DNA of 64,000 nucleotides, from assembly GCA_025057015.1 (NCBI GenBank), contig JANWYG010000008.1, positions 15,848 to 79,847 of the forward strand. The letters run 5' to 3'. Made by a program: the position numbers and the translations under genes. Under the pieces are notes generated by a model. It saw nothing but the letters and a program-made list of their open reading frames with translations. It was not told the origin of the DNA and searched no databases. Numbering within the stretch: position 1 is the first letter of the stretch; each line of letters begins with the position of its first letter. This DNA is from Blastocatellia bacterium (lineage in GTDB: Bacteria; Acidobacteriota; Blastocatellia; Chloracidobacteriales; JADJPF01). Below, one piece after another: positions 2,545 through 52,521 of the stretch.

Positions 2545-3404
2545 TGAAGGTCTTCGTATAACTTGACCCCAGGGCAAGTGTAAGCAGTATAACCTCGAGC
2601 TTGCTTATAAACTCCAAGAGTTTTGCTTGCTAAGATGGACAAAGCCGACCTGTTTACTGCCTCTCGATTTCGTTTGCGGGTCGGCAACTACCTCGAATCC
2701 GGCATTTTCACGCTATCCCTACCATCAGCGTTGGAAAGTCATTCTCAGTACGGTCAGCTATCAGCAACTTCTGAAATGCTTTTAGGAAAGACTATGTTCA
2801 AGTTATAGCCATTATCCTTAAGATACTGTTTCTGAAAATACGTCTGGGGGAGCTCTGTGCCAAATATTTACGATAACGTTGAGCAGAAGTTACTAGCTGG
2901 CCTCAAGGATACGGATTAGCAAACTACCTCCTACCAAATGCCCAGCAGCGGGCAAGCACCGAAGAGCAACGCATTATCAACAATAATCTCACCCGAGCAG
3001 GTCGTCGGCTGATTGGTTTTTGTCGAACGAACTTGTTTAAGCGGTTGGAATCCCGGATATAGCTTCTTGTTATCCCTCAAGCGACATATACTGCGCAACC
3101 TCGTCGTGTTGTATGCTCTAGAGAACAACCGCGACGTTCCGATTGGTATTCAGGATGTCGCTCTGCTGGATGCGGCAGTTTCAGACGAAGGCGCCGAAGT
3201 GAGGGGAGAGCTTGATAGCTCGCAGGCAGAGACAGAAAATACGTCATTTGGTTCGTCGTCTAGTTTGAACGCGCTTCGGCAGCAAGCAAAGAAAGTTTAT
3301 CAATGCTATGTTGCTGACTTGTATCGCTCCAAATTTCAATGGCTCAGCAGCCGGTTTTTTACAGCAGACTTGAGAAAGCACCTCGAAGAGAATGTGCACT
3401 CCTT

Positions 3405-3650
3405 GTGCAATCTCTGTGTCCTTTGTGCCTCTGTGGTTTATTTTATTTTTCCACCACAGAGACACAGAGGACACAGAGGGAACACAAAGGGTTGATTGGG
3501 GGAAGGAGGAGCACAAAGGGTTGGTTGGGGGAAGGGAGTAAGCAGCAGAGCGAGTAAGCAGAGCGACTCTGTGCAATCTCTGTGTCCTTTGTGTCTCTGT
3601 GGTGAGGAAGAAAGATAAGACCACAGAGATACAGAGGACACAAAGAGAGA
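3405..3650 (+). repeat. About 1.5 copies of a hairpin-bearing dispersed repeat family, immediately upstream of the methyltransferase gene
   Basis: Unit start gtgcaatctctgtg occurs at 3405 and 3571. Inverted arms lie at 3412-3437/3453-3478 and 3578-3603/3620-3647 (ctctgtgtcctttgtg[ct]ctctgtggt / accacagag..acagaggacacagag). There is an internal duplication of the gcacaaagggttg.ttggggg block. Positions 3541-3604 are near-identical to 6497-6560. Confidence 0.9.
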
Positions 3651-3665
3651 AAGCAGGTAGGAACT

Positions 3666-6368
3666 ATGGAGAAGCGGGTTTTGATTGAAAGAGTTCTGCC
3701 GATAAGGAAGCTGTCCGAAGAAAGTCGGCGGGAGAAAGCTATTCGTCACGGCCATATCTCTACGCTTCACGTCTGGTGGGCAAGAAAACCTCTGGTTGTC
3801 GCTCGTGCTGCCGTGCTTGGTGCGCTACTTGAGGACGATGAAAATGTTTCGTCGGAGTTGATAGAGAGGTTATGTAAGTGGAAGCTGCATGATGGCAAGC
3901 CTGAAGGGCACAGCCTGCTTGAGCAAGTGAGAGGACTGATTCGGGAGCGTTTTTTGGGGAGACGACCTAAGGTTTTGGATTGTTTTGCCGGAGGAGGCAG
4001 CATCCCGCTGGAAGCGTTACGATTAGGCTGTGACACTTATGCCGTAGATTACAATCCTGTTGCGTATGTTGTTTTGAGAGGAACGATAGAATACCCTCAG
4101 CGGTATGGTAGGCAGCTAGTGGCAGCAGTCAGGCGCTGGAGTGAGTGGGTGTTAGAAAAAGCTGGGAAGGAGCTAGAGTGTTTTTATCCTCGTGTTGGTT
4201 GTGAGACGCCTGTTGCGTACATTTGGCGTCGGACAATTCGATGTCCGAACCCATCATGTGGGGTTGAAGTTCCGCTGACAACTCAATGGTGGTTGGCTAA
4301 GAGGGGAAGAAGGAGAGTGGCGTTGAAACCTATCTTGCGGGGTAATAGAGAAGTAGGTTTTGAATTGGTAGGAGATAAGGAGATAGACTTTGAGCCTTCG
4401 CTAGGGACGGTCAAGCGGGGTAGAGCAGTATGTCTAGCTTGCAATACTTCGATGAGAGGAGATTATGTGAAGGCGGAAGCGCGTGAAGGGCGAATAGGGC
4501 AGCGATTAGTAGCAGTGGCAAGGAAAGTGGATAAGAGGCGAGGGCGTAGCTATCGGCTAGCTGGCGAGGAAGATATAGCTGGTTTTCAGAAAGCAGAGAT
4601 GGCTCTAAAAGAGTTGCTTCGTACTCCTTCGCCTTGGGCGTTTGGGCTGTCTTGGGTGCCACAAGAACCGTCGCGCTTGGTAGGAGCGGGACGACAGCAA
4701 AGTGTTGAGGCAAGTTACGGTTTCTTAGAATGGGGCAAGTTCTTCAACAGTCGGCAGTTGATGGCGTTATGCACCTTTGGAAAGTGGGTACGGGAGGCAT
4801 ACAAGGAGATAGTCAATCAGACAGGCGACTATGAGTTCGCAAAAGCAGTGACTACATATTTGGGATTTGCGGTCGATAAAATGGCTGACCTACTTTCAGT
4901 CCTTACCGGTTGGAAACCTAATGCTGAATGTCCAGTGCACTTATTTGCTCATCACGCAATACCGATGTTGTGGGATTATGCAGAGGCCAATCCGCTTGCT
5001 GGGGCCAGTGCAAGCTGGGCAAGTCAGGTTGAAAGAATGCTTTCCGCACTAACTCTCTGTTTTGTGAACAATAGACGAACGGCGACTACTCATCTTGGCT
5101 CGGCAAATAGGCTTTTTTTTGAGGGAGGGAAGTTTGATGCGGTGGTTATAGATCCGCCATATGCAGATAGCGTACCTTACAGTGACCTGAGCGATTTTTT
5201 CTATGTATGGCTTAGGCGGATAATCGGAGACCTGTATCCAGAAGCTTTTAGTACAGAGCTAGTCCCAAAAGACGAAGAAGCAGTGGTCAATGCTGTGCGA
5301 TTTGGGGGAAAGAAACACGGAGAGCAGATAGCTAAGGCGCATTACCAGCGGCTAATGCGAGAGTCGTTTGCAGAGATCTACCGAGTCCTTAACTCAGAGG
5401 GTGTATGTATAGTGATGTTTAGTCATCGTTCGACTAGCGCTTGGGAGAGGCTAGTGAAAAGTCTTCTGGATGCAGGCCTCTATCCTACAGCTTCGTTTCC
5501 GGTACACACGGAGATGGAGGCATCGACGCATCAGCGAGGCAAGGCCGCAGTGCGCAGCACAGTTGTTATGGCATGCCGACGGCGCTCGGAAAATGCTGGA
5601 ATTGGGTGGTATCGAGAAGTAATGTCGGAGTTACGGCAGGTAGTTTGTGAGAGGCTAAGGGAGTTTTGGAGAGAAGGGATTCGTGGAGCGGACTTTCTCA
5701 TTTCTGCGATAGGTCCTGCTGTGGGCATTTTTGGCAAATATAGAGAAGTCAGACACTTGGATGGGACAGAAGTGAAAGTTGCGGAAGTTTTACAAGAGGT
5801 ACGTAAGGCGGTAGTGGAGTTTACTCTGCAACAGTTAGGGTTTGAGGCATTAGATGAGCCGACGCGTTTTTATATTTTCTACCGATGGGCATACGGGAGT
5901 AAGGAGATAGAATATGACGAAGCGAACAAGCTGGCGAAGGGTTTAGGAGTAGAGTTGAGCGAGATGGAGAGGAGGTATGGTTTGATTAATCGGGATGGAG
6001 ATGAGGTAAGAGTGTTGTCTTTCGAGGAGAGAAAAGGAATTTTGGAACAAGGGTGGAAGGTGAAGCGAGGGAATGAGAGATATGGAGTAGGAGAAAGAAG
6101 CTGTGTGATAGACCAGATACAAATTAGTCTTTTGTTATGGGAATATGGGCAAAGGAGTGAGGTGTTGAATTATTTGGCGAGTTTAGGGGTAAAGGAGGAG
6201 GGGCATAGTTTCTGGCGTGTAGCACAAGCAATTATGGAAGTAGAAGGTGGGGTTGTTGGTGTGGATGGAAGGGTAAGTAGAATAGAAAAGGAAGTTCGAG
6301 TGCTAGCCCAGCTTTTAGGGAGCAAGCAGGGTTTGATACGTGAGATGAGGGCAAAGGTAGTGGGGTAG
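3666..6368 (+). CDS. DUF1156-type (COG1743-like) Zn-ribbon DNA methyltransferase, probable N6-adenine/N4-cytosine class
   Basis: The N-terminus IRHGHISTLHVWWARKPLVVARA is the DUF1156 signature. SAM motif I is VLDCFAGGGSIPLEA (nt 3978-3998). The Cys4 ribbon is CPNPSC...CLAC (nt 4242-4442). Catalytic motif IV is VVIDPPYA, with DPPY at nt 5151-5162. Confidence 0.85.
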   Translation: MEKRVLIERVLPIRKLSEESRREKAIRHGHISTLHVWWARKPLVVARAAVLGALLEDDENVSSELIERLCKWKLHDGKPEGHSLLEQVRGLIRERFLGRRPKVLDCFAGGGSIPLEALRLGCDTYAVDYNPVAYVVLRGTIEYPQRYGRQLVAAVRRWSEWVLEKAGKELECFYPRVGCETPVAYIWRRTIRCPNPSCGVEVPLTTQWWLAKRGRRRVALKPILRGNREVGFELVGDKEIDFEPSLGTVKRGRAVCLACNTSMRGDYVKAEAREGRIGQRLVAVARKVDKRRGRSYRLAGEEDIAGFQKAEMALKELLRTPSPWAFGLSWVPQEPSRLVGAGRQQSVEASYGFLEWGKFFNSRQLMALCTFGKWVREAYKEIVNQTGDYEFAKAVTTYLGFAVDKMADLLSVLTGWKPNAECPVHLFAHHAIPMLWDYAEANPLAGASASWASQVERMLSALTLCFVNNRRTATTHLGSANRLFFEGGKFDAVVIDPPYADSVPYSDLSDFFYVWLRRIIGDLYPEAFSTELVPKDEEAVVNAVRFGGKKHGEQIAKAHYQRLMRESFAEIYRVLNSEGVCIVMFSHRSTSAWERLVKSLLDAGLYPTASFPVHTEMEASTHQRGKAAVRSTVVMACRRRSENAGIGWYREVMSELRQVVCERLREFWREGIRGADFLISAIGPAVGIFGKYREVRHLDGTEVKVAEVLQEVRKAVVEFTLQQLGFEALDEPTRFYIFYRWAYGSKEIEYDEANKLAKGLGVELSEMERRYGLINRDGDEVRVLSFEERKGILEQGWKVKRGNERYGVGERSCVIDQIQISLLLWEYGQRSEVLNYLASLGVKEEGHSFWRVAQAIMEVEGGVVGVDGRVSRIEKEVRVLAQLLGSKQGLIREMRAKVVG

Positions 6369-6379
6369 TGTGGGGGGCT

Positions 6380-6858
6380 GCGGCTTTGTGCAATCTCTGT
6401 GTCCTTTGTGTCTCTGCGGTGAGAAAGAAGGATAAAACCACAGAGGCACAGAGGACACAGAGGGAGCACAAAGGGTTGGTTGGGGAAAAGGAGTAAGCAG
6501 CAGAGCGAGTAGGCAGAGCGACTCTGTGCAATCTCTGTGTCCTTTGTGTCTCTGTGGTGGGGAAGAAAGATAAAACCACAGAGGCACAGAGGACACAGAG
6601 GGAGCACGAAGGGTTGGTTGGGGAAAGGAAGTAAGCAGCAGAGCGAGTAAGCACAGAGCGGCTTTGTGCAGTCTCTGTGTCCTTTGTGTCTCTGTGGTGA
6701 GAAAGAAAGATAAAACCACAGAGGCACAGAGGATACAGAGGGAGCACGAAGGGTTGGTTGGGGGAAGGAAGTAAGCAGCAGAGCGAGTAAGCACAGAGCG
6801 GCTTTGTGCAATCTCTGTGTCCTTTGTGTCTCTGTGGTGAGGAAGAAAGATAAAATCA
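6380..6858 (+). repeat. Tandem array (3 full copies plus 1 truncated) of a 138-140-bp unit, each with a 26-bp-stem hairpin, between the methyltransferase and ATPase genes
   Basis: Unit starts (gtgca) are at 6388, 6526, 6666 and 6806. Arm pairs lie at 6395-6420/6437-6462, 6533-6558/6575-6600 and 6673-6698/6715-6740. The last copy stops inside the loop and right arm at about 6858. The inter-arm spacers are conserved between units. Confidence 0.95.
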
Positions 6859-6913
6859 CAAAACTTTAAGACACTTGGTATATACGAACGGGTATTGCTG
6901 AGAGGTAATCAGG

Positions 6914-9550
6914 GTGATGTCAGAAGGAATCCAGCAGATATGGAGAGTGTGCGAGCTACATTCAGATGTTTTGGCTCATGATCTTGCTCCATCGTCATTT
7001 GCTATTAGTTTGCACCATGTAGAACAAGGTACAGCTGATAGGGATTATGCTGATCCAGAGCGGTTTTTCCAGAAAACTTTTATAACTGCGAGTCTAGGCA
7101 GGCTTTTGGAAGGGGTACTGGCACGCCTTGCTGGTGTAGAAAGGCAAGGTGCACCTATCTTGCAGTTGGAGACACATTTTGGTGGCGGCAAGACCCATGC
7201 GATGACGGCGATATTTCACTTGGTACGTCATCCAGAAGTTGCTGAAGGGGAGAAAGCTTTCCAGCCTATCTTGGCAAACCTCAACATTCGCGCTATCCCC
7301 CGCAATATTAGAGTGGCAATACTTGATGGGCGAGGCTTAGATGTTCGAGAGCGGCGACCTGAACGAGGGATAGTTATTCGAACTCTCTGGGGTGAATTAG
7401 GCTACCGATTAGGACAAAAAGAAGGCTACGCGTTAATGGCAGATGCTGATAGAGAGCGTCTCGCTCCTGGTAGCGAGGTGCTGACCGAGTTTCTTAGACA
7501 CTATCAACCTTTTGTTATCCTGATGGATGAAGTTTTGGAGTACTTGGTCAAGGCTCGCAGCGTTAAGGTTGGAGATAGCAGTCTTATGGAACAAACAGGC
7601 ACTTTTCTAGCTGCATTGACTGCAGCAGTGAGTACATGCTCTCGTGGTGTGCTTATTGCATCTTTGCCTGCTTCCTCGCTAGAAGTTCCGGCTGAAAGTA
7701 GCGAAGCTGCTAGAAGGCTGTTTCAATATGCAAAGAAAGTGTTGGGTCGATTGGAGTTGATAGAGGTGCCAGTGGCTCAAGACGAGATATTTGGAGTTTT
7801 GCGAAAGAGACTGTTTAGTGATATCGGCAATGAGCGCAAGCGCGAGAAGGCTGTTGATGCGCTGCAAGGTTACTACAACAAGTACGCTCACTTTTTCCCA
7901 AAGCGACTCTGTTCACTTGAGTACAAGAAGCGGATGCTTTTGGCTTATCCTTTTCATCCTGTACTAATCGACCTGCTTTATGAGCGCTGGGGACTACAGC
8001 CACAGTTTCAACGGACAAGAGGGATTTTGAGGCTTCTAGCTTTGGTATTGCGTCATTTATGGCGGCATCGTCCTAACTCAGCTCTTCTTGTCCAGCCGCA
8101 TCACCTCGACTTTTCCGATCCCCAGATTCGTGGAGAGATTGTGAAACTCCTAGGTAGCTGCTTTGAACCCGTCATTGTGGGTGATATTTTGCGGAGGGCT
8201 GCTGAGGTAGAACAGAAATTGGGCGGTGATTATGATTTGGAGGCATTAGGCAAGGGCGCTGCTACTTGCGCTTTGCTTTACGGCATTTCGGCAGATGCCT
8301 GGGCTGTCGGGGCAACAGAAGAGGAGATCAGTACTGCTTTACTGAGACCTGACGTCAATCCTGCAATGGTTTCAGAGGTGTTAGGACGGCTGCGCGAAGA
8401 GCTTTGGTATCTTCGTTGCCGTGACAAGCGATATTACTTCACTGCTAGGCCTAACCTTAACAAGATAATCTTAGACTATGAGAGTACCTGTGAGGAAAAG
8501 AGATTAGAACAAGAGTTTGACATTTGGCTACGGCGAGTTGCTGGCAGAAATGAAGGGACATTTCAAGTTGTCGTTGCTACTTTAGAGCCAACGGCCGTGC
8601 CGGACTACCCACGTCCGACACTAGTGGTGCTCAGGCCTGAGGTTGAGAACGACCGAGAATGGATGAAGAAAGCGGTGCAGTATGCAGGCAAAGCCATCCG
8701 CAAGCATAAAAACATGCTAATCTTCTTGGCAGCCTTGCGGGATACCTTTGAAGCGATCCGAAGCGTTCTTAAACGGTGGTGGGCACTTCAATATGTCAGT
8801 AACTCTTGTTTATTCAAGGACTTAAGCAATGAAGACAAAGAGCAGCTCAAAGAGCAGTTGAAAGACAAGGAGGCAGAGCTGGAGACTTTGCTGTTGAAGA
8901 CTTACGCTCGTCTTTACCGTCCGACTTGTGATGGTGTGGAAGAGGTTCTACTGCGTCAAACATCCGAGACGTTCAAGGTAAAGACCTTAAGTCAAATTGT
9001 TGAGTTAGCGTTAAAACAAGAGGGCATCTTGTCGGAAGCGTTATCTCCCGAATTTCTTGTAGCGAGTTTACAAAGCATTTTGGAGCAGCGGAGAGAAGTT
9101 TCCTTACAGCAGGTAGAGATGTTACTTACTAGTGTTCCAGGGAAGCCGATAGTAAAAGATCCTCGAAGGGCATTAACCCGGGCTATTCAGGAAGGAGTGC
9201 GGAAAGGCATTTTTGGCATTCGCATTGGTGACAAGGTTTGTATCGATGAAGAGATTCCGGCAGGTAAGCTTCGTGGACCGAATATAGCTGTTGTTCCACT
9301 TAGTACACCACCTCTACCGTCTCTTCGGCCGACACAACCTCTAACTTTGCGCGTTCGGACAGTTACGCGGATGCTTTACCCGTTGTTGCAAGCAGCGGAC
9401 AAACTGAGGGGAGTAGAAGCATCTGTGGTGTTGGAAGTTCAAGATCAGGCAGGAGGAGAGCTGGCAAAGATACGCGAGGAATTAGACAAGCTCTTCCGAG
9501 ATTATAATTGCACTGTGGAGTGGCGGGAAGAGACATCTGAAAACTGCTAA
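6914..9550 (+). CDS. DUF499-type (COG1483-like) P-loop ATPase
   Basis: Walker A-like LETHFGGGKTHAMTA lies at nt 7178-7195. Walker B is PFVILMDEVLEY (nt 7514-7534). The N-terminal block DPERFFQKTFITASL..LL is typical of DUF499 as I recall it. The start is GTG 6914 or ATG 6917, with a gagagg RBS-like site upstream. Confidence 0.8.
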   Translation: MMSEGIQQIWRVCELHSDVLAHDLAPSSFAISLHHVEQGTADRDYADPERFFQKTFITASLGRLLEGVLARLAGVERQGAPILQLETHFGGGKTHAMTAIFHLVRHPEVAEGEKAFQPILANLNIRAIPRNIRVAILDGRGLDVRERRPERGIVIRTLWGELGYRLGQKEGYALMADADRERLAPGSEVLTEFLRHYQPFVILMDEVLEYLVKARSVKVGDSSLMEQTGTFLAALTAAVSTCSRGVLIASLPASSLEVPAESSEAARRLFQYAKKVLGRLELIEVPVAQDEIFGVLRKRLFSDIGNERKREKAVDALQGYYNKYAHFFPKRLCSLEYKKRMLLAYPFHPVLIDLLYERWGLQPQFQRTRGILRLLALVLRHLWRHRPNSALLVQPHHLDFSDPQIRGEIVKLLGSCFEPVIVGDILRRAAEVEQKLGGDYDLEALGKGAATCALLYGISADAWAVGATEEEISTALLRPDVNPAMVSEVLGRLREELWYLRCRDKRYYFTARPNLNKIILDYESTCEEKRLEQEFDIWLRRVAGRNEGTFQVVVATLEPTAVPDYPRPTLVVLRPEVENDREWMKKAVQYAGKAIRKHKNMLIFLAALRDTFEAIRSVLKRWWALQYVSNSCLFKDLSNEDKEQLKEQLKDKEAELETLLLKTYARLYRPTCDGVEEVLLRQTSETFKVKTLSQIVELALKQEGILSEALSPEFLVASLQSILEQRREVSLQQVEMLLTSVPGKPIVKDPRRALTRAIQEGVRKGIFGIRIGDKVCIDEEIPAGKLRGPNIAVVPLSTPPLPSLRPTQPLTLRVRTVTRMLYPLLQAADKLRGVEASVVLEVQDQAGGELAKIREELDKLFRDYNCTVEWREETSENC

Positions 9551-9660
9551 GTTTGGAGCTTCCAGTTTTACTAAGTTGGAGAGTGCAGCGATCTTTCGCA
9601 GGTATAGAATGGATTGAAGCCGTCGATGTCCACAGCGTGGCCTCAATGTTATGAGTTTTT

Positions 9661-9687
9661 GTGCAGCAACAAAGTGCTGTGCTTTTT
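9661..9687 (+). terminator. Candidate intrinsic terminator about 110 nt after the ATPase stop
   Basis: The sequence is gtgcagca-acaaag-tgctgtgc: an 8-bp stem including 2 G:U pairs and a 6-nt loop, followed by ttttt. It is a weak stem. Confidence 0.4.
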
Positions 9688-9729
9688 CGGCATTCGCAGT
9701 AAATGTTTTTATGTGTTGTAGCGATCTTA

Positions 9730-9773
9730 ATAAGTAGTTGCTTACTCTGCTATAAGTAGTTGCTTACTCTGCT
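9730..9773 (+). repeat. Perfect 22-bp tandem duplication (ataagtagttgcttactctgct x2)
   Basis: Read directly from the sequence: 9730-9751 is identical to 9752-9773. Confidence 0.95.
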
Positions 9774-10004
9774 GCTCGTAGGAGGCAATCTCGTTTGCAT
9801 AGTAACCTAATACTCTTTCGGCTAATGAACATGCAGATTGACCAAAGTAGGCAGTGACATCTGGGAAGGGCTCTGTCCTGCTGCCTGCTGTAAGCTAGTA
9901 GGCGAGGCTCGAGGCTGCGAACGAAGGGCCTGCTGAGTTGCTAATAAACCGATTAGCGAATCTACTTCGTAATGTATGTAATTAGAAGCTCTCCAATAAT
10001 GAGC

Positions 10005-10033
10005 TTGACGATGCTACTAGCGTCATATATAAA
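10005..10033 (+). promoter_or_regulatory. Sigma70-like promoter candidate for the Cys-repeat peptide gene
   Basis: ttgacg (10005-10010), a 17-nt spacer, then tataaa (10028-10033). It lies about 70 nt upstream of the ATG. A strong SD, aggagg, sits at 10090-10095. Confidence 0.45.
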
Positions 10034-10102
10034 GACGCTTACCGTACTCTGACTTCAGAAAATGGATTGCGTATATAAAATAATCTAGTAGGAGGAAAGT
10101 TC

Positions 10103-10579
10103 ATGAATCGCAGAGACTTTGCTAAGACAATACTCGGAGCTGCTTTTGCTGGAATAGTGGCAGGAACTGTGTCAGCAGAAGACAAGAAGCCGGAAGAGAA
10201 GAAGGAAGAAAAGAAAGCTGGTCATAGCTGTAGAGGTGAGAAGGCCTCTTGTAAAGGTGAGAAGAAGGCTTCGTGCAAGGGTGAGAAGGCCTCTTGTAAG
10301 GGCGAGAAGGCTTCGTGCAAGGGCGAGAAGGCTTCGTGCAAGGGCGAGAAGGCTTCGTGCAAGGGTGAGAAGGCCTCTTGCAAGGGCGAGAAGGCTTCGT
10401 GCAAGGGTGAGAAGGCCTCTTGCAAGGGCGAGAAGGCTTCGTGCAAGGGTGAGAAGGCCTCTTGTAAGGGCGAGAAGGCTTCGTGCAAGGGTGAGAAGGC
10501 CTCTTGCAAGGGCGAGAAGGCTTCGTGCAAGGGTGAGAAGGCCTCTTGTAAGACTAAGGATAGCTGTAAGTCGGTGTAG
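10103..10579 (+). CDS. Secreted Cys-repeat peptide or small protein (158 aa): Tat-type signal plus 15 CKGEKAS-like heptads; candidate MNIO substrate (RiPP precursor)
   Basis: MNRRDFAKTILGAAFAGIVAGTVSA carries RRxFxK, a hydrophobic core and VSA. A KE-rich spacer follows. Then come CRGEKAS, CKGEKKAS, 13x CKGEKAS, CKTKDS and CKSV, giving 17 Cys. It has a strong SD and lies directly upstream of DUF692/DUF2063 genes. Confidence 0.8.
   Translation: MNRRDFAKTILGAAFAGIVAGTVSAEDKKPEEKKEEKKAGHSCRGEKASCKGEKKASCKGEKASCKGEKASCKGEKASCKGEKASCKGEKASCKGEKASCKGEKASCKGEKASCKGEKASCKGEKASCKGEKASCKGEKASCKGEKASCKTKDSCKSV
10229..10546 (+). repeat. In-frame 21-bp tandem repeat (15 units) encoding the Cys heptads, built from two synonymous unit types
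   Basis: Unit A is aag ggt gag aag gcc tct tgY. Unit B is aag ggc gag aag gct tcg tgc. The order along the array is A, KK-variant, A, B, B, B, A, B, A, B, A, B, A, B, A. Confidence 0.95.
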
Positions 10580-10596
10580 TTTATTCTTTGTTGTGT

Positions 10597-10642
10597 AAAG
10601 GTCGAAGGGAAGTATTTAAAGTTCTTCGACCTTTACTTTTTT
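10597..10642 (+). terminator. Intrinsic terminator or attenuator between the peptide gene and the DUF692 gene
   Basis: aaaggtcgaag (10597-10607) pairs perfectly with cttcgaccttt (10624-10634) across a 16-nt loop, followed by acttttttg. Confidence 0.55.
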
Positions 10643-10655
10643 GAGGTTTTTGCTT

Positions 10656-11498
10656 ATGACGAATCGTTGGAATTTACCTGACTTAGGTCTAGGCGTTGGG
10701 CTTAGGACTGTTCATTATCAGCATATTCTTTCGAACTATCCTAGAGTGGACTGGTTTGAGATCATTTCCGAGAATTTTCTAGATACAGAAGGGCGGCCAA
10801 TGTATGTTCTCGATCAGGTAGCTGAGCGTTATCCCGTGGTGATGCATGGTGTGTCGATGTCTATAGGTAGTACGGATCCGATCAATTTTGAGTATTTGAG
10901 GAAGTTAAAAGCACTCGCAAAGCGGATCAATGCTCCTTGGGTTTCAGATCATCTTTGTTGGACTGGAGTTAGCGGCAAAAACGTACATGATCTTTTGCCT
11001 ATGCCATATAACGAGGAGTCACTCAAGCATACTGTTGAGAGGGTCAAGATAGTCTCAGACTTTTTGGAGCGCCCCTTGGTATTGGAGAATCCGTCGTCAT
11101 ATATAGAATTTGCTAACAGCAGTATGACCGAGTGGGATTTTTTAGCTGCGCTGTTAGAAGAAGCGGACTGTGGAATGTTGCTTGATATAAACAACGTCTA
11201 TGTGAGTTCGTTTAACCACTCGTTTGATCCCAAGCGATATATAGACGCTATACCTGCTGATCGGGTAGTTCAGTATCATTTAGCTGGTCATACGAGCTAT
11301 GGCACGCACATTATAGATACGCACAGCGACTATGTGATAGACGAGGTATGGGGTCTTTATAAGTATGCGAACGAGGTCATAGGCAGTAGGGCGACGTTGT
11401 TAGAGTGGGATGACGACATACCTGATTTCGACACTGTGCATAACGAAGTGCTTAAGGCGCAGGAATATAAGAAGCAGGGGGTTCTTGTCTATGGTTAG
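10656..11498 (+). CDS. DUF692 / MNIO family (multinuclear non-heme iron oxidative) peptide-modifying enzyme, MbnB/BufB/HvfB-like
   Basis: Family blocks are present: LGLGVGLR..H, DWFEIISENF, VMHGVSMSIGS, WVSDHLCW, DLLPMPY, LVLENPSSY, MLLDINNVYVS and YHLAGHT. I prefer ATG at 10656 (MTNRWN...) over the track's TTG at 10641, which lies inside the terminator tail. Confidence 0.85.
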   Translation: MTNRWNLPDLGLGVGLRTVHYQHILSNYPRVDWFEIISENFLDTEGRPMYVLDQVAERYPVVMHGVSMSIGSTDPINFEYLRKLKALAKRINAPWVSDHLCWTGVSGKNVHDLLPMPYNEESLKHTVERVKIVSDFLERPLVLENPSSYIEFANSSMTEWDFLAALLEEADCGMLLDINNVYVSSFNHSFDPKRYIDAIPADRVVQYHLAGHTSYGTHIIDTHSDYVIDEVWGLYKYANEVIGSRATLLEWDDDIPDFDTVHNEVLKAQEYKKQGVLVYG

Positions 11499-12339
11499 TG
11501 AGATTCCGCTTGCTGTAATGCAGCAGTGGATGCAGGCAGTAATAATGGCCAAGGGAGATGATCTCGAGGCGATACATTCACCGGAAGCGACTAAGTTTCT
11601 TTCACCACAACAAGTAGAGTATTTTATCTTGCCGTCCAGAACGCTTGAGCCTATCGAGCGTTTGCACATTTACCGAAGGATGTATATCTTGAGGTTGTGT
11701 GAAGCATTGGCTTCGGATTTTGAAGCATTTAGCGACTATGTTGGTAAGGACAAGTTTGAAGAGTTAGTTACTGACTACGTAGCTATTTATCCTTCTACGA
11801 GTTACAGCCTAAACCCACTTAGTTACCGGTTTCCTGAGTTTCTACGCTCTCGCAAAGATATTGAGCCGAAGCGGTTTCTTGTAGAGCTTGCTGAGTTAGA
11901 GCTTGCTATAACTCAAGTTTTCGACATGCCACAAAGTCCGTTGTTATCTTCAGAGCAGGTTAGTGCGGTACCGCCCGAAGCCTGGGAGAGGGTGATTCTT
12001 CGCCCGATCAAGGCATTGCGACTGCTGAAGTTTGACTATCCTGTAAATGACTACCTTACTGCTTTTAGGAACGAAAGCGTGCTACCGGAGATACGTAGAA
12101 AGAACAACTATGTACTAGTATATCGTCCTGGCTATAGTATGAGGCGTGAGTCATTAAGCAGGCAGGCATATTTGCTGTTGAGGCACTTACTAGATGGTAA
12201 GCCGATAGCTCTTGCTATAGAGAGTTGTATTGGGCAGGGCGTTAGCAGGAAGCTCTTACAGGAGAAGCTATTTTACTGGTTTAGGGATTGGGTGGCCTCT
12301 GGGGTATTTAGCTCTTTGGAGTGTTCAGCTAGAGATTAG
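11491..12339 (+). CDS. DUF2063-type partner protein (MbnC/BufC/HvfC-like peptide-binding subunit)
   Basis: Its position immediately after DUF692 is the canonical pairing. The start ATG at 11491 overlaps the DUF692 stop by 8 nt (atggttag). Size is about 280 aa. The domain call rests mainly on context and general N-terminal resemblance. Confidence 0.65.
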   Translation: MVSEIPLAVMQQWMQAVIMAKGDDLEAIHSPEATKFLSPQQVEYFILPSRTLEPIERLHIYRRMYILRLCEALASDFEAFSDYVGKDKFEELVTDYVAIYPSTSYSLNPLSYRFPEFLRSRKDIEPKRFLVELAELELAITQVFDMPQSPLLSSEQVSAVPPEAWERVILRPIKALRLLKFDYPVNDYLTAFRNESVLPEIRRKNNYVLVYRPGYSMRRESLSRQAYLLLRHLLDGKPIALAIESCIGQGVSRKLLQEKLFYWFRDWVASGVFSSLECSARD

Positions 12340-12358
12340 GATAGGGTTTAAGGTAAGG

Positions 12359-13195
12359 TTAGGTAGATTTTGGATCGCACAAACTTCCTTCAAATACAAT
12401 CTCGGCAGGACCTTGAAAACAGAGTTGTTCATCGCTGTCGAGAGCTATCGTAAGAGTTCCGGCAGGCATTTCTACTTTGACTGGAGGCGTGACTAAGCCT
12501 TTGAGGATTGCTGCCATAGCAGCAGCAGAAGCTCCAGTGCCTGAAGATGCCGTAATGCCTACGCCTCGTTCCCATAGTCGCACTTCTATACTGGTGGAAG
12601 AGTTTGTTTTCCTTATGAACTCGACGTTAGTACGCGAGGGGAAAAGAGGATGCTGTTCTAGCTGGGTGCCTATAGTTTTCCAGTCGAAGTTAAAATCCTC
12701 TACGAAAACACAGCAGTGGGGATTGCCTACAGAAAGTGCCGTGACGAGTACTTGTCCCGAAGGCAGTTGAACGGGGTAATCTATTACGCGTTCGAGCGAG
12801 TCAGGTAGTGCTATGGGTATTAGAGAAGGTGTGAAGGTCGGTTTGCCGATAGTTACTTGGAACTGGTAAGTATAGTTGTTATTAGAGATGAGTTTGAGTG
12901 TTTTTTTTCCCGTGGGCGTCGTTATATCTAGCGATGGAGTTTTGCCATATTTATGGCAGATAAATGCCGCTACGCAGCGAATGCCGTTGCCGGACATTTC
13001 TGCTTCGCTGCCGTCAGCATTGAAGATTTTCATTTGCCATCCTTCCTCGAGTCGCTTTACTACAAGTAATCCGTCAGCACCGACGCCAGTATGTCTGAGG
13101 CAGAGCCTACGTGCTAGCCCTGGATAGTCTACGGAGTCATCTTGCTCGAGGACTATAAAGTCGTTTGCTAGGCCGTGTATCTTGACGAATTTCAT
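12359..13195 (-). CDS. dapF: Diaminopimelate epimerase homolog with both catalytic Cys positions occupied by Ser
   Basis: Colinear with E. coli DapF as I recall it: MKFVKIHGLANDF, RHTGVGADGLLVV, IFNADGSEAEMSGNG, GNPHC, ERGVGITASSGTGA. I prefer the start at 13195 (MKFVK), which forms an ATGA overlap with the upstream kinase stop. Confidence 0.85.
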   Translation of the reverse strand: MKFVKIHGLANDFIVLEQDDSVDYPGLARRLCLRHTGVGADGLLVVKRLEEGWQMKIFNADGSEAEMSGNGIRCVAAFICHKYGKTPSLDITTPTGKKTLKLISNNNYTYQFQVTIGKPTFTPSLIPIALPDSLERVIDYPVQLPSGQVLVTALSVGNPHCCVFVEDFNFDWKTIGTQLEQHPLFPSRTNVEFIRKTNSSTSIEVRLWERGVGITASSGTGASAAAMAAILKGLVTPPVKVEMPAGTLTIALDSDEQLCFQGPAEIVFEGSLCDPKST

Positions 13196-14121
13196 ACACT
13201 TTTGCGTTCGAATTCTATCTCTTCGAAGTGCATTATGCGCTTGAAGTATTTGAAACGTTCGTTTATCTCGCGATAAGTAAGACGAAGCATTCGATCGCAA
13301 CCGAACTCTTCCACGTTGAATGAAGCCATAACGGAAGCATAAATCATGGCTCTGCGCATGTCATTTTCGTCTGTGGAATTAACAGCTGCCAGGTATCCTA
13401 TGAAACCCCCGGCAAAAGTATCACCGGCACCGGTTGGATCGAAGACGTCTTCTGTAGGAAATGCTGGCATAGCAAAGTAGGACTCTTGGGAGAACATAGC
13501 TGCACCGTATTCACCTCTTTTGACGACGAGGCGCTTTGGACCGAAGGAGAGAATCTTTCTAGCTGCTTTTATAAGGTTAGCTTCGCGGGCGAGTTCTCGT
13601 GCTTCTTCGTCGTTAATAATTAGGAGATCTACAAATTGTAATAACTCTCGTAGTTCGTCAGGAGTACTTTCTATCCAGTAGTTCATAGTGTCGAGCGCAG
13701 TAAATCTCGGGCGAGTGTTCTTAAAAACCTCCAGTTGAAGTTTAGGGCTGATGTTTCCTAGGAACAAGAAGGGAGTATCTTTAAATTCCTCTGGAATTTT
13801 GGGATCGAAGTCGGCAAAAACGTTGAGGTGAGTGTAGATTGTCTCCCGCGTATTGAGATCATATCCGTATTTACCTTTCCATCTGAAAGTCTTGCCTGGT
13901 CTACGTTCTAAGCCGGCTGTATTGATCTTGCGAGACTTAAAGACTGCTAACTGCTCGTCTGTGAAGTCTTCACCTACCACTGCAACGACATTGACCGAAG
14001 TGAAAAAAGACGCTGCTATAGCAAAATGAGTACACGAGCCGCCGAGTATCTGCTCGCGGCTGCCGAAGGGCGTTTCTACGGCGTCAAAAGCTATCGACCC
14101 AACTGCTAATATAGACATCAA
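13192..14121 (-). CDS. PfkB-family carbohydrate/nucleoside kinase
   Basis: Has the C-terminal DPTGAGDTFAGGF motif, an N-terminal GG dipeptide region and a ribokinase-like length. Confidence 0.8.
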   Translation of the reverse strand: MMSILAVGSIAFDAVETPFGSREQILGGSCTHFAIAASFFTSVNVVAVVGEDFTDEQLAVFKSRKINTAGLERRPGKTFRWKGKYGYDLNTRETIYTHLNVFADFDPKIPEEFKDTPFLFLGNISPKLQLEVFKNTRPRFTALDTMNYWIESTPDELRELLQFVDLLIINDEEARELAREANLIKAARKILSFGPKRLVVKRGEYGAAMFSQESYFAMPAFPTEDVFDPTGAGDTFAGGFIGYLAAVNSTDENDMRRAMIYASVMASFNVEEFGCDRMLRLTYREINERFKYFKRIMHFEEIEFERKSV

Positions 14122-14530: not shown

Positions 14531-17500
14531 TTAACTTGGTTGGCTTAGTAGCTGCTTCATAGTGTTATGAACTGCTTCTATGCGGAAGGGTTTGAGAAAT
14601 ACCATATCTACTAATTTTCTGTTGTTATGGTTTATTTCAGTATCACAGCCTGTTACTAGTACTACTTTCGAACTACTGTATCGCTGTTTTACTTCGGAAG
14701 CAAACTTCCAACCGTCCATATCTACGAGCACTAGATCGGTGAAAACTACGTCGAACTGGGTCTTGGATAATACCTCGAGTGCTTCTCTACCGCTAGAGGC
14801 TTGGATCACGCTATGTCCTTGCATTTCGAGGGCATCTGAAAGTACTTCTCGCACGGAGTCTTCATCGTCTACGACGAGAACTTTGACTTTTCTTGGCGGC
14901 TCCATCGGCAAGGAGGTGGTATCTTCTGAGTAGGAACTGTCTGATTTATGGTGGTAAGGTAAGGTGATGATGAAGGTAGTGCCTTCGCCAGGGCAGCTTT
15001 GTACTTCTATACGACCGTTGAGGCGCGTGATGATATTTTGAGATACGAAAAGTCCCAAACCTGTACCTGCTTGACCTTTAGTGGTGAAAAATGGTTCGAA
15101 GAGCCGACTCTTTATCTCCTCTGTCATACCTATGCCGGTATCGGTCAATGCTATGTTTACAAAGCCGTCCCCGCAGAAAGTTCCTATATGTATTAGGCCA
15201 CCTTCAGGCATGGCATCTAGGGCATTGAGGATAAGGTTGACGAAAACTTCTCGTAATTCCGAAGGATCGGCCAGAACGGTAGCTGGTTGCTCTAAGCTTG
15301 TTTCTATCTTGTAGGATATTCCTTTTGCTAGGGCATCTTCTCTCCATCTGGAAGAAGTCATTTCTATGCAGTCGATAATTATCTCATTTACATCTACTTC
15401 GGTCGGATAGTGATCCTGGTTAAGGCGGGAAAAGTTCTGTATTCTACGGGCAATATTTGCGCCGTCGAGGGCAGCAGTTTCTATAACTTCCAACCCTCGC
15501 CGCAGCTGTTCGTCTTCGGTAGTTCGCTTAAGGATCTGGGCCTTACCCAAGATAGTCGTCAAAATGTTGTTAAAGTCGTGGGCTATTCCTGAAGCCATCT
15601 GTCCTATGATGTGCAGCTTGTCTGAGTTTGCAGCTACTGCTGCTGCTTGTTTTTCTTCAGTTACGTCCCTAGCTATGACTAATACACCAGATAGTTGGCC
15701 GCTTGTAAACAATGGTGAAAAAGTCAGTATAACTGAACGGTGGCTGCTAGAAATGTGTCTGAAGCAGAGTTCGCATTTTTGAGCTCTACCAAGAGATGCT
15801 ACTTCGAAGGCATGTTTGGCTTGAGAGATGCTTTCTTCAGTTAGAAGCTCGCTGAAGTTGCGACCTATTAATTTGTCTGCTGGTAGTCCGGTTAGTTCTG
15901 CGAGCATTGCGTTTGCTAAAGTTATGTCTCCGTTTCTATCTAACGCAAAAATGGCATCGTAGGCATTTTCTATGAGGTTTATAAAGAAGAGGCGTTGAGT
16001 TTGAGCAGTAGCCTCTGTGCGCCGTAGCTCAGTCAGATCTCGCAGAACACATACTGCTCCATAGCGGCTGTTGGTATTGCCTATAGGGTCTACGGACAAG
16101 AGTAAGAGTCTATCGGTGTAAACCTTTTCGAATTGTCTAGATTCACCTGAAGAGATGGCATTCGCTATTAGGTTTTGTGTTTCTCTGAAAATAGGGTGCA
16201 GCTCAGCAGAGTCTGTACCCTGGATTATACCGGTAGGCCTGTTGAAAAATCTCGTAGCAGCTTCGTTTGCAGTGACTACTAGTTTCTTCTTATCGAGTAT
16301 GACTACCGGATCAGAAACGGCATTAAAAGTAGCTGCCCAGCGCTGTAACTGCCGTTTTAGGTCGCGCAGCTTCTCGGCTGAAGTTACCACTGGTGCAAGC
16401 TGGCTGGCGTAGCGCTGTAATTCTGACACCAATCTTTGCTTGAGCGGTCGTTCTAGCAAGGCGATGAATAATCCTACGGTCTTTGTTTGCGTCACTATTG
16501 GCAGCAGTAATGCATAGTTTACCTTAAACCTGTTATGTAGCCGCTTTATCAGACTTGATGTTTCAAGAATCGTATCTAAATTTTCAAGTAATACTAGCTT
16601 TCCTTGCCTTAGCGCGCTGTTTATGAGGGTGTCTTCTGTAGAGATGATTAGATCGCAACCTTGAATACCAGGTGTTTTGCGGACTTCAGTTTCGAGCAGC
16701 ATTATCTTAGCGTCTTTTTGATCGCTGCCGGGTCTATAAAAGGCAGCTACCGTGGCAGAGGTTATTTCTACGGCTTCAGCCACGAAAAGTTTTATAGCCT
16801 GTGCAGGATCGAGATTGACAGCTAAATTCAAGCAATACCTATCAAATCTTTCTTTTTCTAAATTTAATACTTCTTTGAGGAAGAATTCTTTTGCTATTTC
16901 GGCGAAGTTTGAAACTACTTGCTTTTTGTTGTCGAAATAACCTGCTGCCATGTCGCCAAAGACTAGTATAGTGCAAGTTTGATTGTCAGCATGTATCGGT
17001 ATAAAGGCTAATGCTCTTAGTCCAAAGAGAGTATACTCGTCTTCGTATTTCAGTTCCATTATTGCGTCATGGACTATGGCTATGTCGCAGTTTTCTAAAA
17101 CTTCTCGTAAGGTGGGCGTAGAAGGAAATGTCGTAGCAGCCGTCGCCTCTATGCTCTCCTTTATATCTATCAAACTGCGTGTGAACCTATGGTGAGCTAT
17201 TTGGAGGAATACTTCCTCGCCTTCTTTTTTGCCGATGAGACAAGCACCAAAGTCACACTGCAAAGCGGCACAACCGCGCCTTACTAGTGCCTCTAGGGGA
17301 TCAATTTCTACACTATAACGTTTGTTTCGTTCAGAGTGAGCGTTTTCAATGAGAGCCTTGTCTATAATACCAGAGATTGTGCAAAAGAAATCAGGCCAGT
17401 TGTACTCGCCGCCTTTGAACCTGAATAGCTTAAGTAACGAGTTACGTAGGGCACAAAGTACTTCTGCCGGCGGACAAGAGGAGTTCAAGTACTCTCTAAA

Positions 17501-17650
17501 CGAATCGGTTGAAGACGTAGCCTCGATAAGAGCATCTGTTAGGTCAGTTATTTCCGGCATATCGAATGAAGTGTTTAGTTCACATCCGATTGTATCGATT
17601 AAGGTTAACCTATATTTGCTGAGCAGCTCTTTTAGTTTTGTGAAATCCAT
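14531..17650 (-). CDS. Hybrid sensor histidine kinase (GAF/PAS sensory region, HisKA, HATPase_c, C-terminal receiver)
   Basis: H-box GIAHDFNNILTTILG; N/G boxes LNALDAM, DTGIGM, GTGLGL; receiver KVLVVDDE...TDLVLVDMDG...LKPF. Confidence 0.85.
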   Translation of the reverse strand: MDFTKLKELLSKYRLTLIDTIGCELNTSFDMPEITDLTDALIEATSSTDSFREYLNSSCPPAEVLCALRNSLLKLFRFKGGEYNWPDFFCTISGIIDKALIENAHSERNKRYSVEIDPLEALVRRGCAALQCDFGACLIGKKEGEEVFLQIAHHRFTRSLIDIKESIEATAATTFPSTPTLREVLENCDIAIVHDAIMELKYEDEYTLFGLRALAFIPIHADNQTCTILVFGDMAAGYFDNKKQVVSNFAEIAKEFFLKEVLNLEKERFDRYCLNLAVNLDPAQAIKLFVAEAVEITSATVAAFYRPGSDQKDAKIMLLETEVRKTPGIQGCDLIISTEDTLINSALRQGKLVLLENLDTILETSSLIKRLHNRFKVNYALLLPIVTQTKTVGLFIALLERPLKQRLVSELQRYASQLAPVVTSAEKLRDLKRQLQRWAATFNAVSDPVVILDKKKLVVTANEAATRFFNRPTGIIQGTDSAELHPIFRETQNLIANAISSGESRQFEKVYTDRLLLLSVDPIGNTNSRYGAVCVLRDLTELRRTEATAQTQRLFFINLIENAYDAIFALDRNGDITLANAMLAELTGLPADKLIGRNFSELLTEESISQAKHAFEVASLGRAQKCELCFRHISSSHRSVILTFSPLFTSGQLSGVLVIARDVTEEKQAAAVAANSDKLHIIGQMASGIAHDFNNILTTILGKAQILKRTTEDEQLRRGLEVIETAALDGANIARRIQNFSRLNQDHYPTEVDVNEIIIDCIEMTSSRWREDALAKGISYKIETSLEQPATVLADPSELREVFVNLILNALDAMPEGGLIHIGTFCGDGFVNIALTDTGIGMTEEIKSRLFEPFFTTKGQAGTGLGLFVSQNIITRLNGRIEVQSCPGEGTTFIITLPYHHKSDSSYSEDTTSLPMEPPRKVKVLVVDDEDSVREVLSDALEMQGHSVIQASSGREALEVLSKTQFDVVFTDLVLVDMDGWKFASEVKQRYSSSKVVLVTGCDTEINHNNRKLVDMVFLKPFRIEAVHNTMKQLLSQPS

Positions 17651-52062: not shown

Positions 52063-52068
52063 TTTCGT

Positions 52069-52521
52069 TTAAGTTGGATAAACTACTACCTTGCGACTGC
52101 TACCTTCTCCAACACTTTCTGTCCTTACGCCGGGCTCTTTTAACAGTTCGAGGTGTATTATTCGGCGTTCGGCAGGCGGCATAGGCTCGAAAGTAAAACT
52201 TTTGCCTAGATATCTCACGCGTTGAGCTACATATCTAGCCATCATTTTCAACTCGTCGGCACGCTTGTTCCTAAAGCCCATGCAATCGAAGCTTATATAC
52301 TTTCCTTCGGGAACGATGGGAGCATAGAGTTTGTTCGTCAAGTATTCGAGAGCGTTAAGTAGCTCGCCGTTTTTGCCTAGTAGAAGGGAGCTATCTTCTC
52401 CGCTGAGCTCGACAAATATTCCACTCGGTTTTAGCAGAATGTCAAAACGTAGTCTTAAGCCAGAGAGTTGTATTATAGTATCGAGGAATTCAGCGATCTT
52501 TTCTACGGCACTATCTCGCAT
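52069..52521 (-). CDS. Jag/KhpB-like RNA-binding protein (KH plus R3H), short form
   Basis: Sits at the conserved position after yidC. Has an R3H-like block (PMPPAERRIIHLEL) and is 150 aa long. Confidence 0.7.
   Translation of the reverse strand: MRDSAVEKIAEFLDTIIQLSGLRLRFDILLKPSGIFVELSGEDSSLLLGKNGELLNALEYLTNKLYAPIVPEGKYISFDCMGFRNKRADELKMMARYVAQRVRYLGKSFTFEPMPPAERRIIHLELLKEPGVRTESVGEGSSRKVVVYPT

Follow-up and report, generated by a model that had tools for sequence, protein, structure and literature searches.

Bufferins (PMC11626156) and the broader captophorins (PMC13097082) are made from Cys-rich precursors with a signal peptide, whose Cys residues are converted into copper-binding 5-thiooxazoles by a multinuclear non-haem iron-dependent oxidase (MNIO) and its type 1 partner protein (PME1). 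Three groups of precursors have been distinguished, namely DUF2282 proteins, Lys-Cys proteins with EGKCG repeats and BufA2-like Cys-Lys proteins (PMC13097082). The buf2 operon of C. vibrioides, bufA2-bufB2-bufC2, has no DoxX gene; in its Buf2 peptide, four central Cys residues each lose 4 Da, and the peptide protects against copper (PMC11626156). Here, we analysed a compact gene cluster at positions 10005-12339 of a 64,000-nucleotide stretch of DNA from a Blastocatellia bacterium (assembly GCA_025057015.1, contig JANWYG010000008.1, positions 15,848 to 79,847; this whole stretch is called the window below). We propose that it is a self-contained Buf2-type bufferin/captophorin operon of the Cys-Lys group in the metagenome-assembled genome of an Acidobacteriota, and we put the probability of this reading, its mechanism included, at roughly 0.6. 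The original prediction, made from the sequence alone, had guessed that the DNA came from Acidobacteriota, and the NCBI entry of a 100%-identical MNIO protein indeed belongs to a metagenome-assembled genome of that phylum.

The cluster comprises, in this order, a promoter candidate, the gene of a 158-residue precursor (10103..10579, + strand), a hairpin followed by T6, the MNIO gene, the DUF2063 gene and a convergent dapF gene. All elements of the original prediction lie at the positions given there, and its reading proves largely right. The original prediction had read a RiPP (ribosomally synthesised and post-translationally modified peptide) operon here, which can now be assigned to the bufferin type, its MNIO being a BufB equivalog. 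This DUF692 protein of 280 residues (10656..11498, + strand; PF05114, 1.4e-108) scores 359.9 bits with the MNIO_BufB equivalog model NF050167 (cutoff 310) and stays below the cutoffs for HvfB (259.8 vs 360), MbnB (54.7 vs 325), ApyH and ChrH. All its metal-ligand motifs align with those of PDB entry 3BWW, which comes from an H. somni locus counted among the MNIO-PME1 clusters (PMC13097082), and it reads EWDD where 3BWW reads ERDF. In MNIO enzymes of the Cys-Lys group, the catalytic Asp is followed by another Asp (BufB2-D251), and in Lys-Cys enzymes by a Phe (FonB Phe250) (PMC13097082). Because the window enzyme passes the BufB cutoff and has Asp where 3BWW has Phe, the enzyme side fits the Cys-Lys bufferin type. 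The precursor agrees with this type in that 16 of its 17 Cys residues are followed by Lys.

The MNIO gene is directly followed by that of its putative partner, a BufC-like, PME type 1 DUF2063 protein of 282 residues (11491..12339, + strand; PF09836, 60.5 bits, cutoff 27.2). This protein does not reach the cutoff of the HvfC equivalog (50.5 vs 142 bits), and a PDB sequence search gave no match. Its ATG at 11491 overlaps the MNIO stop codon TAG (11496-11498) by the 8 nt that had been read in the sequence (ATGGTTAG). The two genes overlap by 1-20 nt in 53 of 79 relatives, with 33 of these overlaps being 4-nt, ATGA-type ones, and translational coupling of the MNIO and DUF2063 genes, as suggested by these overlaps, is the family norm.

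The original prediction had also pointed to genes that the cluster lacks. A hidden Markov model of DoxX, built from four Pfam-confirmed seeds, detected no DoxX gene anywhere in the window, and the cluster and its immediate neighbourhood contain no protease or transporter gene, with the closest M16 peptidase genes >26 kb away. Both absences are confirmed, but neither is distinctive. The absence of DoxX is ordinary: it corresponds to the prototype buf2ABC layout and to the majority state of the relatives, 19 of 80 having a DoxX gene within 6 kb and 61 having none, and DoxX is not required for membership in the family. Similarly, bufferins use general export and signal peptidase, and a dedicated protease or exporter is not known from any bufferin cluster.

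The first unusual feature of the cluster is its precursor, which lies directly 5' of the MNIO gene, as in the relatives. It consists of the signal peptide MNRRDFAKTILGAAFAGIVAGTVSA, a K/E-rich linker, 15 GEKASCK heptads in tandem, one of which is GEKKASCK (10235..10552, + strand), and a C-terminal TKDSCKSV. All Cys residues are in S-C-K/R context, with a single one followed by Arg. The DNA of the array repeats every 21 bp and, at a higher order, every 42 bp (TRF: 21 bp x 14.5 copies; 42 bp x 7.5 copies, 94% identity), the latter unit representing two alternating synonymous codon variants of the heptad DNA. In a table of the single units, the 13 perfect heptads listed differ only at four third-codon positions, all of them synonymous, a pattern that speaks for a recent expansion by double units and for the peptide being under selection. 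An AlphaFold2 single-sequence model of the precursor is a beta-solenoid; only one of the five models has a high pLDDT, and the PDB contains no significant fold match, so that this can only be taken as a hint of such a fold.

The precursor belongs to none of the described BufA2, BufA1 (DUF2282) and EGKCG/HvfA types. It has no Pfam match, DUF2282 included, and no EGKCG motif, and at E <= 10 the Pfam and NCBIfam searches returned noise and sub-threshold matches to BufA2 and formate_TAT only. Among 5.8 billion proteins, we found two weak matches, one encoded beside an MNIO gene (P0002) and one not (P0001), and no similar array. A scan of metagenome contigs (JGI) for two consecutive GEKASCK units found none; the looser pattern GEKASCKGE gave seven matches, of which the loci that we call L093 and L088 only were relevant. 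A phmmer search of 1.84 billion representatives yielded ~1000 matches, nearly all of them due to composition and to unrelated low-complexity proteins with a heptad period. Nothing came of motif searches in the supplementary files of two survey papers. A heptad-only precursor that fails the BufA2 model, with (GEKASCK)x15 in place of the 6-Cys module, looks new.

The only relevant group in the phmmer search is a GKEGSCK family in Candidatus Obscuribacterales, which also has the only other pure heptad arrays that we found. It comprises ~72 small secreted proteins with four to eight perfect heptads. In three loci of this family (L094, L095, L096), no MNIO or DUF2063 gene is present within 4 kb. 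One of the GKEGSCK genes adjoins msrAB and the gene of an extracytoplasmic function (ECF) sigma factor, and another follows a TetR gene.

A genome scan with the MNIO enzyme gave 80 loci, mostly in Acidobacteriota, Planctomycetota and Myxococcota. We identified a Cys-rich precursor 5' of the MNIO gene in 62 of them, mostly of BufA2-like type with CKGxNxCKGxGGC motifs; the precursor of one relative, L007, passes the BufA2 model NF050166 with 64.1 bits. The closest relative, L097, has an MNIO enzyme 85% identical to that of the window and is fully syntenic, with a DsbH-like thioredoxin gene, the precursor, MNIO and DUF2063 genes, and then dapF, pfkB and a yfiO-like gene on the opposite strand. 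The comparison of synteny that had been suggested for this cluster thus shows it to be collinear with its neighbours in that genome. The precursor of L097 shares its signal peptide and linker with that of the window; next come one canonical 6-Cys Buf2 module and seven short xKASCKG/ESSCKG units. The metagenome contig L093, whose MNIO N-terminus is 85% identical, has a precursor of the same plan, and in L001 (MNIO 75% identical) several Buf2 modules are joined by CKVEKASCKS and followed by a KESCKS tail. In the alignment with L097 and L093, the window precursor is devoid of the 6-Cys module and has the GEKASCK x15 array. This comparison of sequences shows the precursor as a recent derivative of a canonical BufA2, in which the module would have been lost and the tail unit expanded as 42-bp double units.

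Other relatives carry variants of these motifs. In L083 (a contig of GCA_965191245.1), ECF sigma and NrsF genes are followed by the gene of a lipoprotein-type precursor with four EKASCKG-like motifs and then by that of an MNIO 56% identical to the window enzyme; this is a classic SigF/NrsF-regulated bufferin layout with the same motif. In L026, L031 and L045 (Ignavibacteriales, Bacteroidota, Kapaibacterium), precursors made of (GKDGCK)n hexads are encoded 5' of closely related MNIO genes, with a DoxX gene 3' of the DUF2063 gene. They represent another simple-repeat variant of the Cys-Lys type.

The second unusual feature is the export signal (10103..10177, + strand). It reads N-R-R-D-F-A-K, followed by the G/A-rich hydrophobic region TILGAAFAGIVAGT and a VSA cleavage motif, and it matches the consensus of twin-arginine translocation (Tat) signals, S/T-R-R-x-F-L-K, as quoted in PMC7317946. 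An RR-[DE]-F-x-[KR] motif with a G/A-rich hydrophobic region is present in 36 of 64 related precursors. In their consensus, [NSKD]-R-R-[DE]-F-x-[KR], the Phe at +2 is invariant (36/36), and 30 of the 36 have Lys or Arg at +4. The remaining 28 precursors have no RR motif; the clear signals among them are of the Sec or lipoprotein type, and some of these open reading frames are truncated or have doubtful starts. The Tat machinery can carry small, hydrophilic, unstructured substrates, and a K/E/S/G-rich peptide suits this mode of transport. Our literature search for twin-arginine signals linked with MNIO enzymes or bufferins found nothing, and an RRxFxK Tat-type signal in 36 of 64 relatives, compared with a literature that describes Sec, looks new. 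We thus infer on good grounds that the precursor is exported by Tat. The original prediction had taken Tat export as given; what stands of it is the fit of the NRRDFAK sequence and its recurrence in the relatives, the dependence on Tat itself being a deduction from these.

The third is a hairpin between the precursor and MNIO genes, which had been described as a perfect 11-bp stem with a T-tract, closely followed by the DUF692 start. Both are present. In the stem core, AAAGGTCGAAG (10597-10607) pairs with CTTCGACCTTT (10624-10634); with the flanking A-U and G-U pairs, the stem reaches 15 bp (10595-10609/10622-10636) around a 12-nt loop, and the whole element, including T6 (10637-10642) directly 3' of the stem, spans 10595..10642 on the + strand. 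The predicted energy is -19.9 kcal/mol (z = -5.0 vs dinucleotide shuffles), and an A-tract upstream mirrors the T6. The precursor stop codon is 15 nt ahead of the stem. Directly after the T-tract comes the putative ribosome-binding site of the MNIO gene, GAGG (10643..10646, + strand), 9 nt from the ATG at 10656, which is itself 13 nt past the T-tract. Since this ribosome-binding site begins right after the U-tract, transcripts that ended there could not encode the enzymes. A search of Rfam with 9400-12500 found no RNA family at E <= 1.

Several results argue that this hairpin is not there by chance. In a strict terminator scan of both strands (perfect stem of at least 9 bp, loop of 3-16 nt, T-rich tail), it is the sole match in the 64-kb window, and 30 dinucleotide shuffles gave none. 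L097 has an orthologous hairpin (-25.5 kcal/mol, z = -4.6, 17-nt loop) with a U-rich tail, followed by a Shine-Dalgarno sequence and the ATG; between the two genomes, one A-U pair has become G-C in a compensatory manner and one G.U pair has become U.G. At the corresponding place, L093 and L001 also have hairpins, just as strong but of another sequence. More generally, a single hairpin of -12 kcal/mol or below is found in the precursor-MNIO spacer of 52 of 58 loci, L093 included, and many of those in relatives are canonical GC stems followed by a T-run. The spacers of the 57 fetched relatives (median length ~95 nt) have a median z of -3.0 against shuffles, 68% of them being below -2, as compared with a median of -0.2 and 9% for length-matched MNIO coding segments used as controls. 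On these sequence comparisons, the hairpin between precursor and maturase genes is therefore a family-wide recurrent feature and not a chance one. We regard it as a putative leaky intrinsic terminator or attenuator. It would terminate transcripts, stabilise them or do both; termination, read-through and the resulting precursor-to-enzyme stoichiometry are what we infer from its form and position. Likewise, the 1:1 ratio of the two enzymes in the original prediction is an expectation from the gene arrangement. The bufferin literature, so far as it is searchable, makes no mention of a terminator or hairpin. In microcin C operons, abundant monocistronic precursor mRNA results from the order mccA-terminator-mccB (PMC6495379).

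Upstream of the precursor gene, we found the sigma70-like promoter of the original prediction as it had been read, with TTGACG (10005-10010) and TATAAA (10028-10033) on the + strand separated by a 17-nt spacer. In the alignment with L097, both hexamers and their spacing are identical and only 7 of the 17 spacer bases match; the identical blocks are CTTGACG and TATAAAGA, 17 nt apart. Conservation of the hexamers beside a diverged spacer amounts to a phylogenetic footprint in the aligned sequences. L093 is more distant, and aligning its upstream region gave no information on the -35 and -10 hexamers. A generic promoter consensus scan found a chance-level number of promoter-like sites in the window; its own candidate here, 10054-10081, is not conserved in L097 and was rejected. 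Because the hexamers at 10005-10033 are conserved in L097 and the site of the scan is not, we consider the former as the best promoter candidate, its use as a promoter being deduced from sequence. A terminator-like hairpin with a T-run, found by scanning 3' of the upstream hmaC-like gene (9661..9692, + strand), marks the upstream boundary and argues that the cluster has its own promoter. The Shine-Dalgarno sequence AGGAGG (10090..10095, + strand) is as strong as had been stated and lies 7 nt ahead of the precursor ATG at 10103; the block CTAGGAGGA...TTCATGAATCG around it is kept in both L097 and L093. At the other end, the convergent gene noted earlier is dapF (12359..13300, - strand; TIGR00652, 235 bits), which forms the downstream boundary and also adjoins the cluster in the syntenic L097. 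By reading of the sequence and with no significance test, we also noticed an inverted repeat, AGCGTC-N9-GACGCT (10019-10039), around the -10 hexamer of the window. The L097 -10 hexamer likewise lies within an inverted repeat, of another sequence (GGCTCTT-N15-AAGAGCC, L097 ~2484-2512). These repeats may be operators or structures of the 5' end of the transcript.

Taken together, these elements suggest the following mechanism. Transcription would start at ~10040 from the TTGACG-17-TATAAA promoter, and the first cistron, with its strong Shine-Dalgarno sequence, would yield the precursor. Most transcripts would end or be stabilised at the hairpin and U6 (10595-10642), and read-through transcripts alone would encode the enzymes, giving much more precursor than enzyme. 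The MNIO and its DUF2063 partner, translationally coupled through the 8-nt overlap, would presumably form a heterodimer and, by homology with characterised enzymes, oxidise up to 17 Cys residues in the cytoplasm to 5-thiooxazoles, with a loss of 4 Da each. The hydrophilic, K/E/S/G-rich product would then be exported, probably through Tat as suggested by its RRDFAK signal, and cleaved by signal peptidase after VSA, to serve as a high-capacity periplasmic chelator of copper or another soft metal. The problem of how export is avoided before modification has been raised for bufferins (PMC12452194). As a tentative extension of this scheme, which we hold to be possible but doubtful, the product might be a Tat-exported 'poly-thiooxazole' polymer with all 17 Cys residues modified before post-translational export. 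The twin-arginine signal, found in about half of the Acidobacteriota and Planctomycetota relatives, would then be the answer of this lineage to premature export, and array length, changing in 42-bp steps, would tune the chelating capacity.

A number of results weigh against our reading of the cluster as a bufferin operon with this mechanism. Regarding the substrate, the precursor scores 11.1 bits (E = 0.35) against the cutoff of 60 with NF050166, the NCBIfam model of BufA2 with its 6 or 12 conserved Cys residues, and modification of a heptad-only protein by an MNIO would be without precedent among the substrates shown so far. Judging from the GKEGSCK proteins with no MNIO gene nearby, such arrays may also work unmodified. 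The copy number of 15 comes from a single assembly, as two other assemblies of the organism end inside the array. Regarding export, the signal matches the TIGR02811 formate_TAT model weakly and below cutoff (E = 0.019), Pfam TAT_signal gives no match in the precursor, and Sec and lipoprotein signals only are described in the bufferin literature (PMC11626156, PMC12452194). There are no tat genes among the annotated open reading frames of at least 120 residues up to ~59.5 kb, TatA-sized genes being below this limit; this annotation stops before the last four open reading frames of the window. In the same set, we found no sigF or nrsF gene, no metal regulator and no copper gene, and metal induction is thus a pure analogy. 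Regarding expression, the TTGACG/TATAAA site was not called by the generic promoter scan, because TATAAA has no T at -7. With 12 nt, the loop of the hairpin is larger than in typical efficient terminators, which points to a weak terminator; loops above 8 nt are also beyond the reach of the generic terminator scan, which accordingly missed this hairpin.

Some of these points are accounted for by other explanations of the locus. The precursor could be an unmodified, exported thiolate protein for metal binding or redox buffering, similar to metallothioneins, and not, or not necessarily, an MNIO substrate. This would be consistent with its failure in the BufA2 model, with the 72-member GKEGSCK family, whose proteins have signal peptides and whose genes, in three loci, have no MNIO gene within 4 kb of them, and with the many precursor genes unlinked to MNIO genes according to the landscape paper. 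Nevertheless, the gene sits at the precursor position of an intact, syntenic operon, in which its L097 orthologue is a bona fide BufA2-type precursor; the S-C-K-G context occurs within BufA2 modules, the MNIO has the Asp of Cys-Lys enzymes, and the enzyme genes are intact and coupled. We therefore consider an unmodified protein improbable. We give even less credit to an assembly artefact or a decaying gene as the source of the long perfect array. Both other public assemblies of the organism (L081, GCA_033583975.1; L082, a Logan assembly of SRR25904939) start inside the array, and the pattern of TGT and TGC units differs between L081 and the window, which reflects either assembly ambiguity or strain variation. 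However, L081 has at least 11 in-frame units of the same two variants, the reading frame is intact with all variation synonymous, and L093 and L097 carry shorter versions of the same tail.

The hairpin and the signal peptide can also be read in other ways. If the hairpin were mainly an mRNA-stability element, the operon would be transcribed as a single unit and then processed, with the 3' end of the precursor mRNA protected from exonucleases by the stem-loop and its excess arising through decay. Of the 58 loci, 52 have a strong hairpin, but just 11 were scored as having a clear T-rich tail (a lower bound), and efficient intrinsic terminators do not usually have loops as large as the 12-17 nt of the window, L097 and L001. 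However, a U-run that follows the stem at once, as in the window, L097, L007, L009, L012 and L015, would be needless for protection from decay, and the A-tract mirroring the U-tract resembles classical terminators; we find a pure stability element rather unlikely. That the hairpin is, on the contrary, a complete terminator and the enzyme genes have a promoter of their own seems very improbable. Weak hexamers can be read at ~10591-10618 (TTGTGT-16-TATTTA, 3/6 + 3/6), but the U-tract is just 13 nt from the ATG, an arrangement equally tight in L097, and the scan called no plus-strand promoter-like site between 10082 and 11920. The strongest competitor to any part of our reading concerns export, which might proceed through Sec as for the published bufferins, with incidental twin arginines. 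The bufferin papers all describe Sec signals and one of them showed Sec-type export for BufA1, no Tat-specific model is matched above threshold and 28 of 64 related precursors have no RR motif. Yet the RR pair, the Phe at +2 and the Lys or Arg at +4 hardly vary among 36 precursors of several phyla, in contrast to the remainder of the signal. We consider export by Sec as possible, if less probable than export by Tat. A leaky terminator upstream of coupled enzyme genes and a Tat-exported MNIO substrate thus remain our preferred reading.

The cluster is flanked upstream by the hmaC-like/DUF499 gene and downstream by dapF, pfkB, a yfiO-like gene and a histidine kinase gene. Compared with L097, the window has an insertion of ~7.4 kb (2530-9900) that separates the DsbH-like thioredoxin gene from the precursor gene. 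This block codes for an HmaB-like DNA adenine methylase (3666-6368; PADLOC 3.5e-126; Pfam DUF1156) and an HmaC-like AAA+ ATPase (6914-9550; 5.4e-130; DUF499), and no HmaA helicase was seen in it. The product of the DsbH-like gene (1003-2544; DUF255, thioredoxin and six-hairpin domains) is 73% identical to its L097 orthologue. It ends at residue 513 of 587, the insertion having apparently truncated it, and has no counterpart of the C-terminal 77 residues present in L097 and L093. A first test of synteny, in which the upstream open reading frame of L093 was compared with the window DsbH-like protein, gave no match, because the window copy lacks these 77 residues, and L097 shows that the synteny is real. 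We rejected the DsbH-like gene as a conserved cluster member replacing DoxX, because only the closest relatives have it next to the cluster. Close to the right-hand end of the inserted block and ~230 nt 5' of the promoter, there is a perfect tandem direct repeat of 22 bp, ATAAGTAGTTGCTTACTCTGCT x2 (9730-9773), which occurs nowhere else in the window and is possibly an island end or a regulator site. In the non-coding region before the hmaB-like gene (3396-3640), an element of ~30 nt is repeated and inverted (GTGCAATCTCTGTGTCCTTTGTG.CTCTGTGGT / CCACAGAGACACAGAGGACACAGAGG). Further away on the - strand, mnmE, jag (R3H) and yidC occur in a row (50710-54307), a gene string usual beside the replication origin. 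Two adjacent proteins of ~810 residues, made almost wholly of HEAT/PBS-lyase repeats, are also encoded on the - strand (17824-22669) and adjoin a large hybrid histidine kinase with GAF, PAS and receiver domains (14531-17650).

What is unusual about this operon is thus its heptad-only precursor, its conserved twin-arginine signal and its family-wide hairpin, and what is ordinary is that it has no DoxX, protease or exporter gene. Bufferins and captophorins are among the largest RiPP classes, with >24,000 MNIO-PME1 loci reported, but few have been studied, all of them from Pseudomonadota and all described as Sec substrates. The fifteen S-C-K heptads would offer a clean substrate to ask how an MNIO-PME1 pair threads and iteratively processes long repeats, and the array could show the number of thiooxazoles per copper ion. 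The presence of a twin-arginine signal in many non-proteobacterial Buf2-type precursors bears on the question of how export is delayed (PMC12452194), and a terminator-like hairpin found across phyla would be a simple built-in device to set the ratio of substrate to enzyme. In addition, the comparison with L097, L093 and L001 captures, in closely related genomes, a structured 6-Cys domain giving way to a simple repeat.

In its layout, the cluster resembles the microcin C operon (mccA-terminator-mccB), in which a short precursor gene is followed by an intrinsic terminator and the enzymes are made by read-through (PMC6495379). In contrast, the chemistry and the family are unrelated, and mcc termination is ribosome-induced on an ORF of 7 codons. 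Methanobactin biosynthesis by MbnABC is closer in chemistry, as an MNIO and a partner modify Cys residues of a ribosomal peptide to make a copper chelator. However, the partner encoded in the window is a DUF2063 protein and not MbnC, and its MNIO scores 54.7 bits with MbnB against a cutoff of 325; methanobactin also has no signal peptide, is exported by a dedicated system and serves in the acquisition of copper rather than in its buffering. The GKEGSCK proteins of Obscuribacterales share with the window precursor a signal peptide followed by perfect heptads, an S-C-K-G core and K/E-rich filler, and differ from it by their Sec-type (non-RR) signals and their lack of MNIO or DUF2063 genes within 4 kb.

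The Lys-Cys systems, oxazolin (HvfABC of H. influenzae), fontiphorin (FonABC) and gonophorin, are similar to the cluster in having repetitive, hydrophilic, multi-Cys precursors and an MNIO-PME1 pair. EGKCG precursors are processed at every repeat, and their copper binding may be stochastic and multi-site. Their published AlphaFold models are beta-helices, and the single-sequence model of the window precursor is a beta-solenoid. Whereas their K-C-G motifs recur in 5-mers (17-residue super-repeats), the C-K-G motifs of the window recur in 7-mers; substrates in which a charged residue follows Cys are not processed by FonBC. The MNIO enzymes of EGKCG systems have Phe where the window enzyme has Asp, and the latter scores below the HvfB cutoff (259.8 vs 360).

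The closest described system is buf2ABC of C. vibrioides. The window precursor differs from its BufA2 in having no 6-Cys module, 15 heptads and 17 Cys residues, no flanking Cys pair for a stabilising disulfide, and a twin-arginine-type signal; no SigF/NrsF regulators are encoded nearby. Both operons have the precursor-MNIO-DUF2063 order without DoxX and no dedicated protease or exporter, and both code for a precursor with an N-terminal signal and C-K-G motifs and for a BufB equivalog MNIO with the Asp of the Cys-Lys type.

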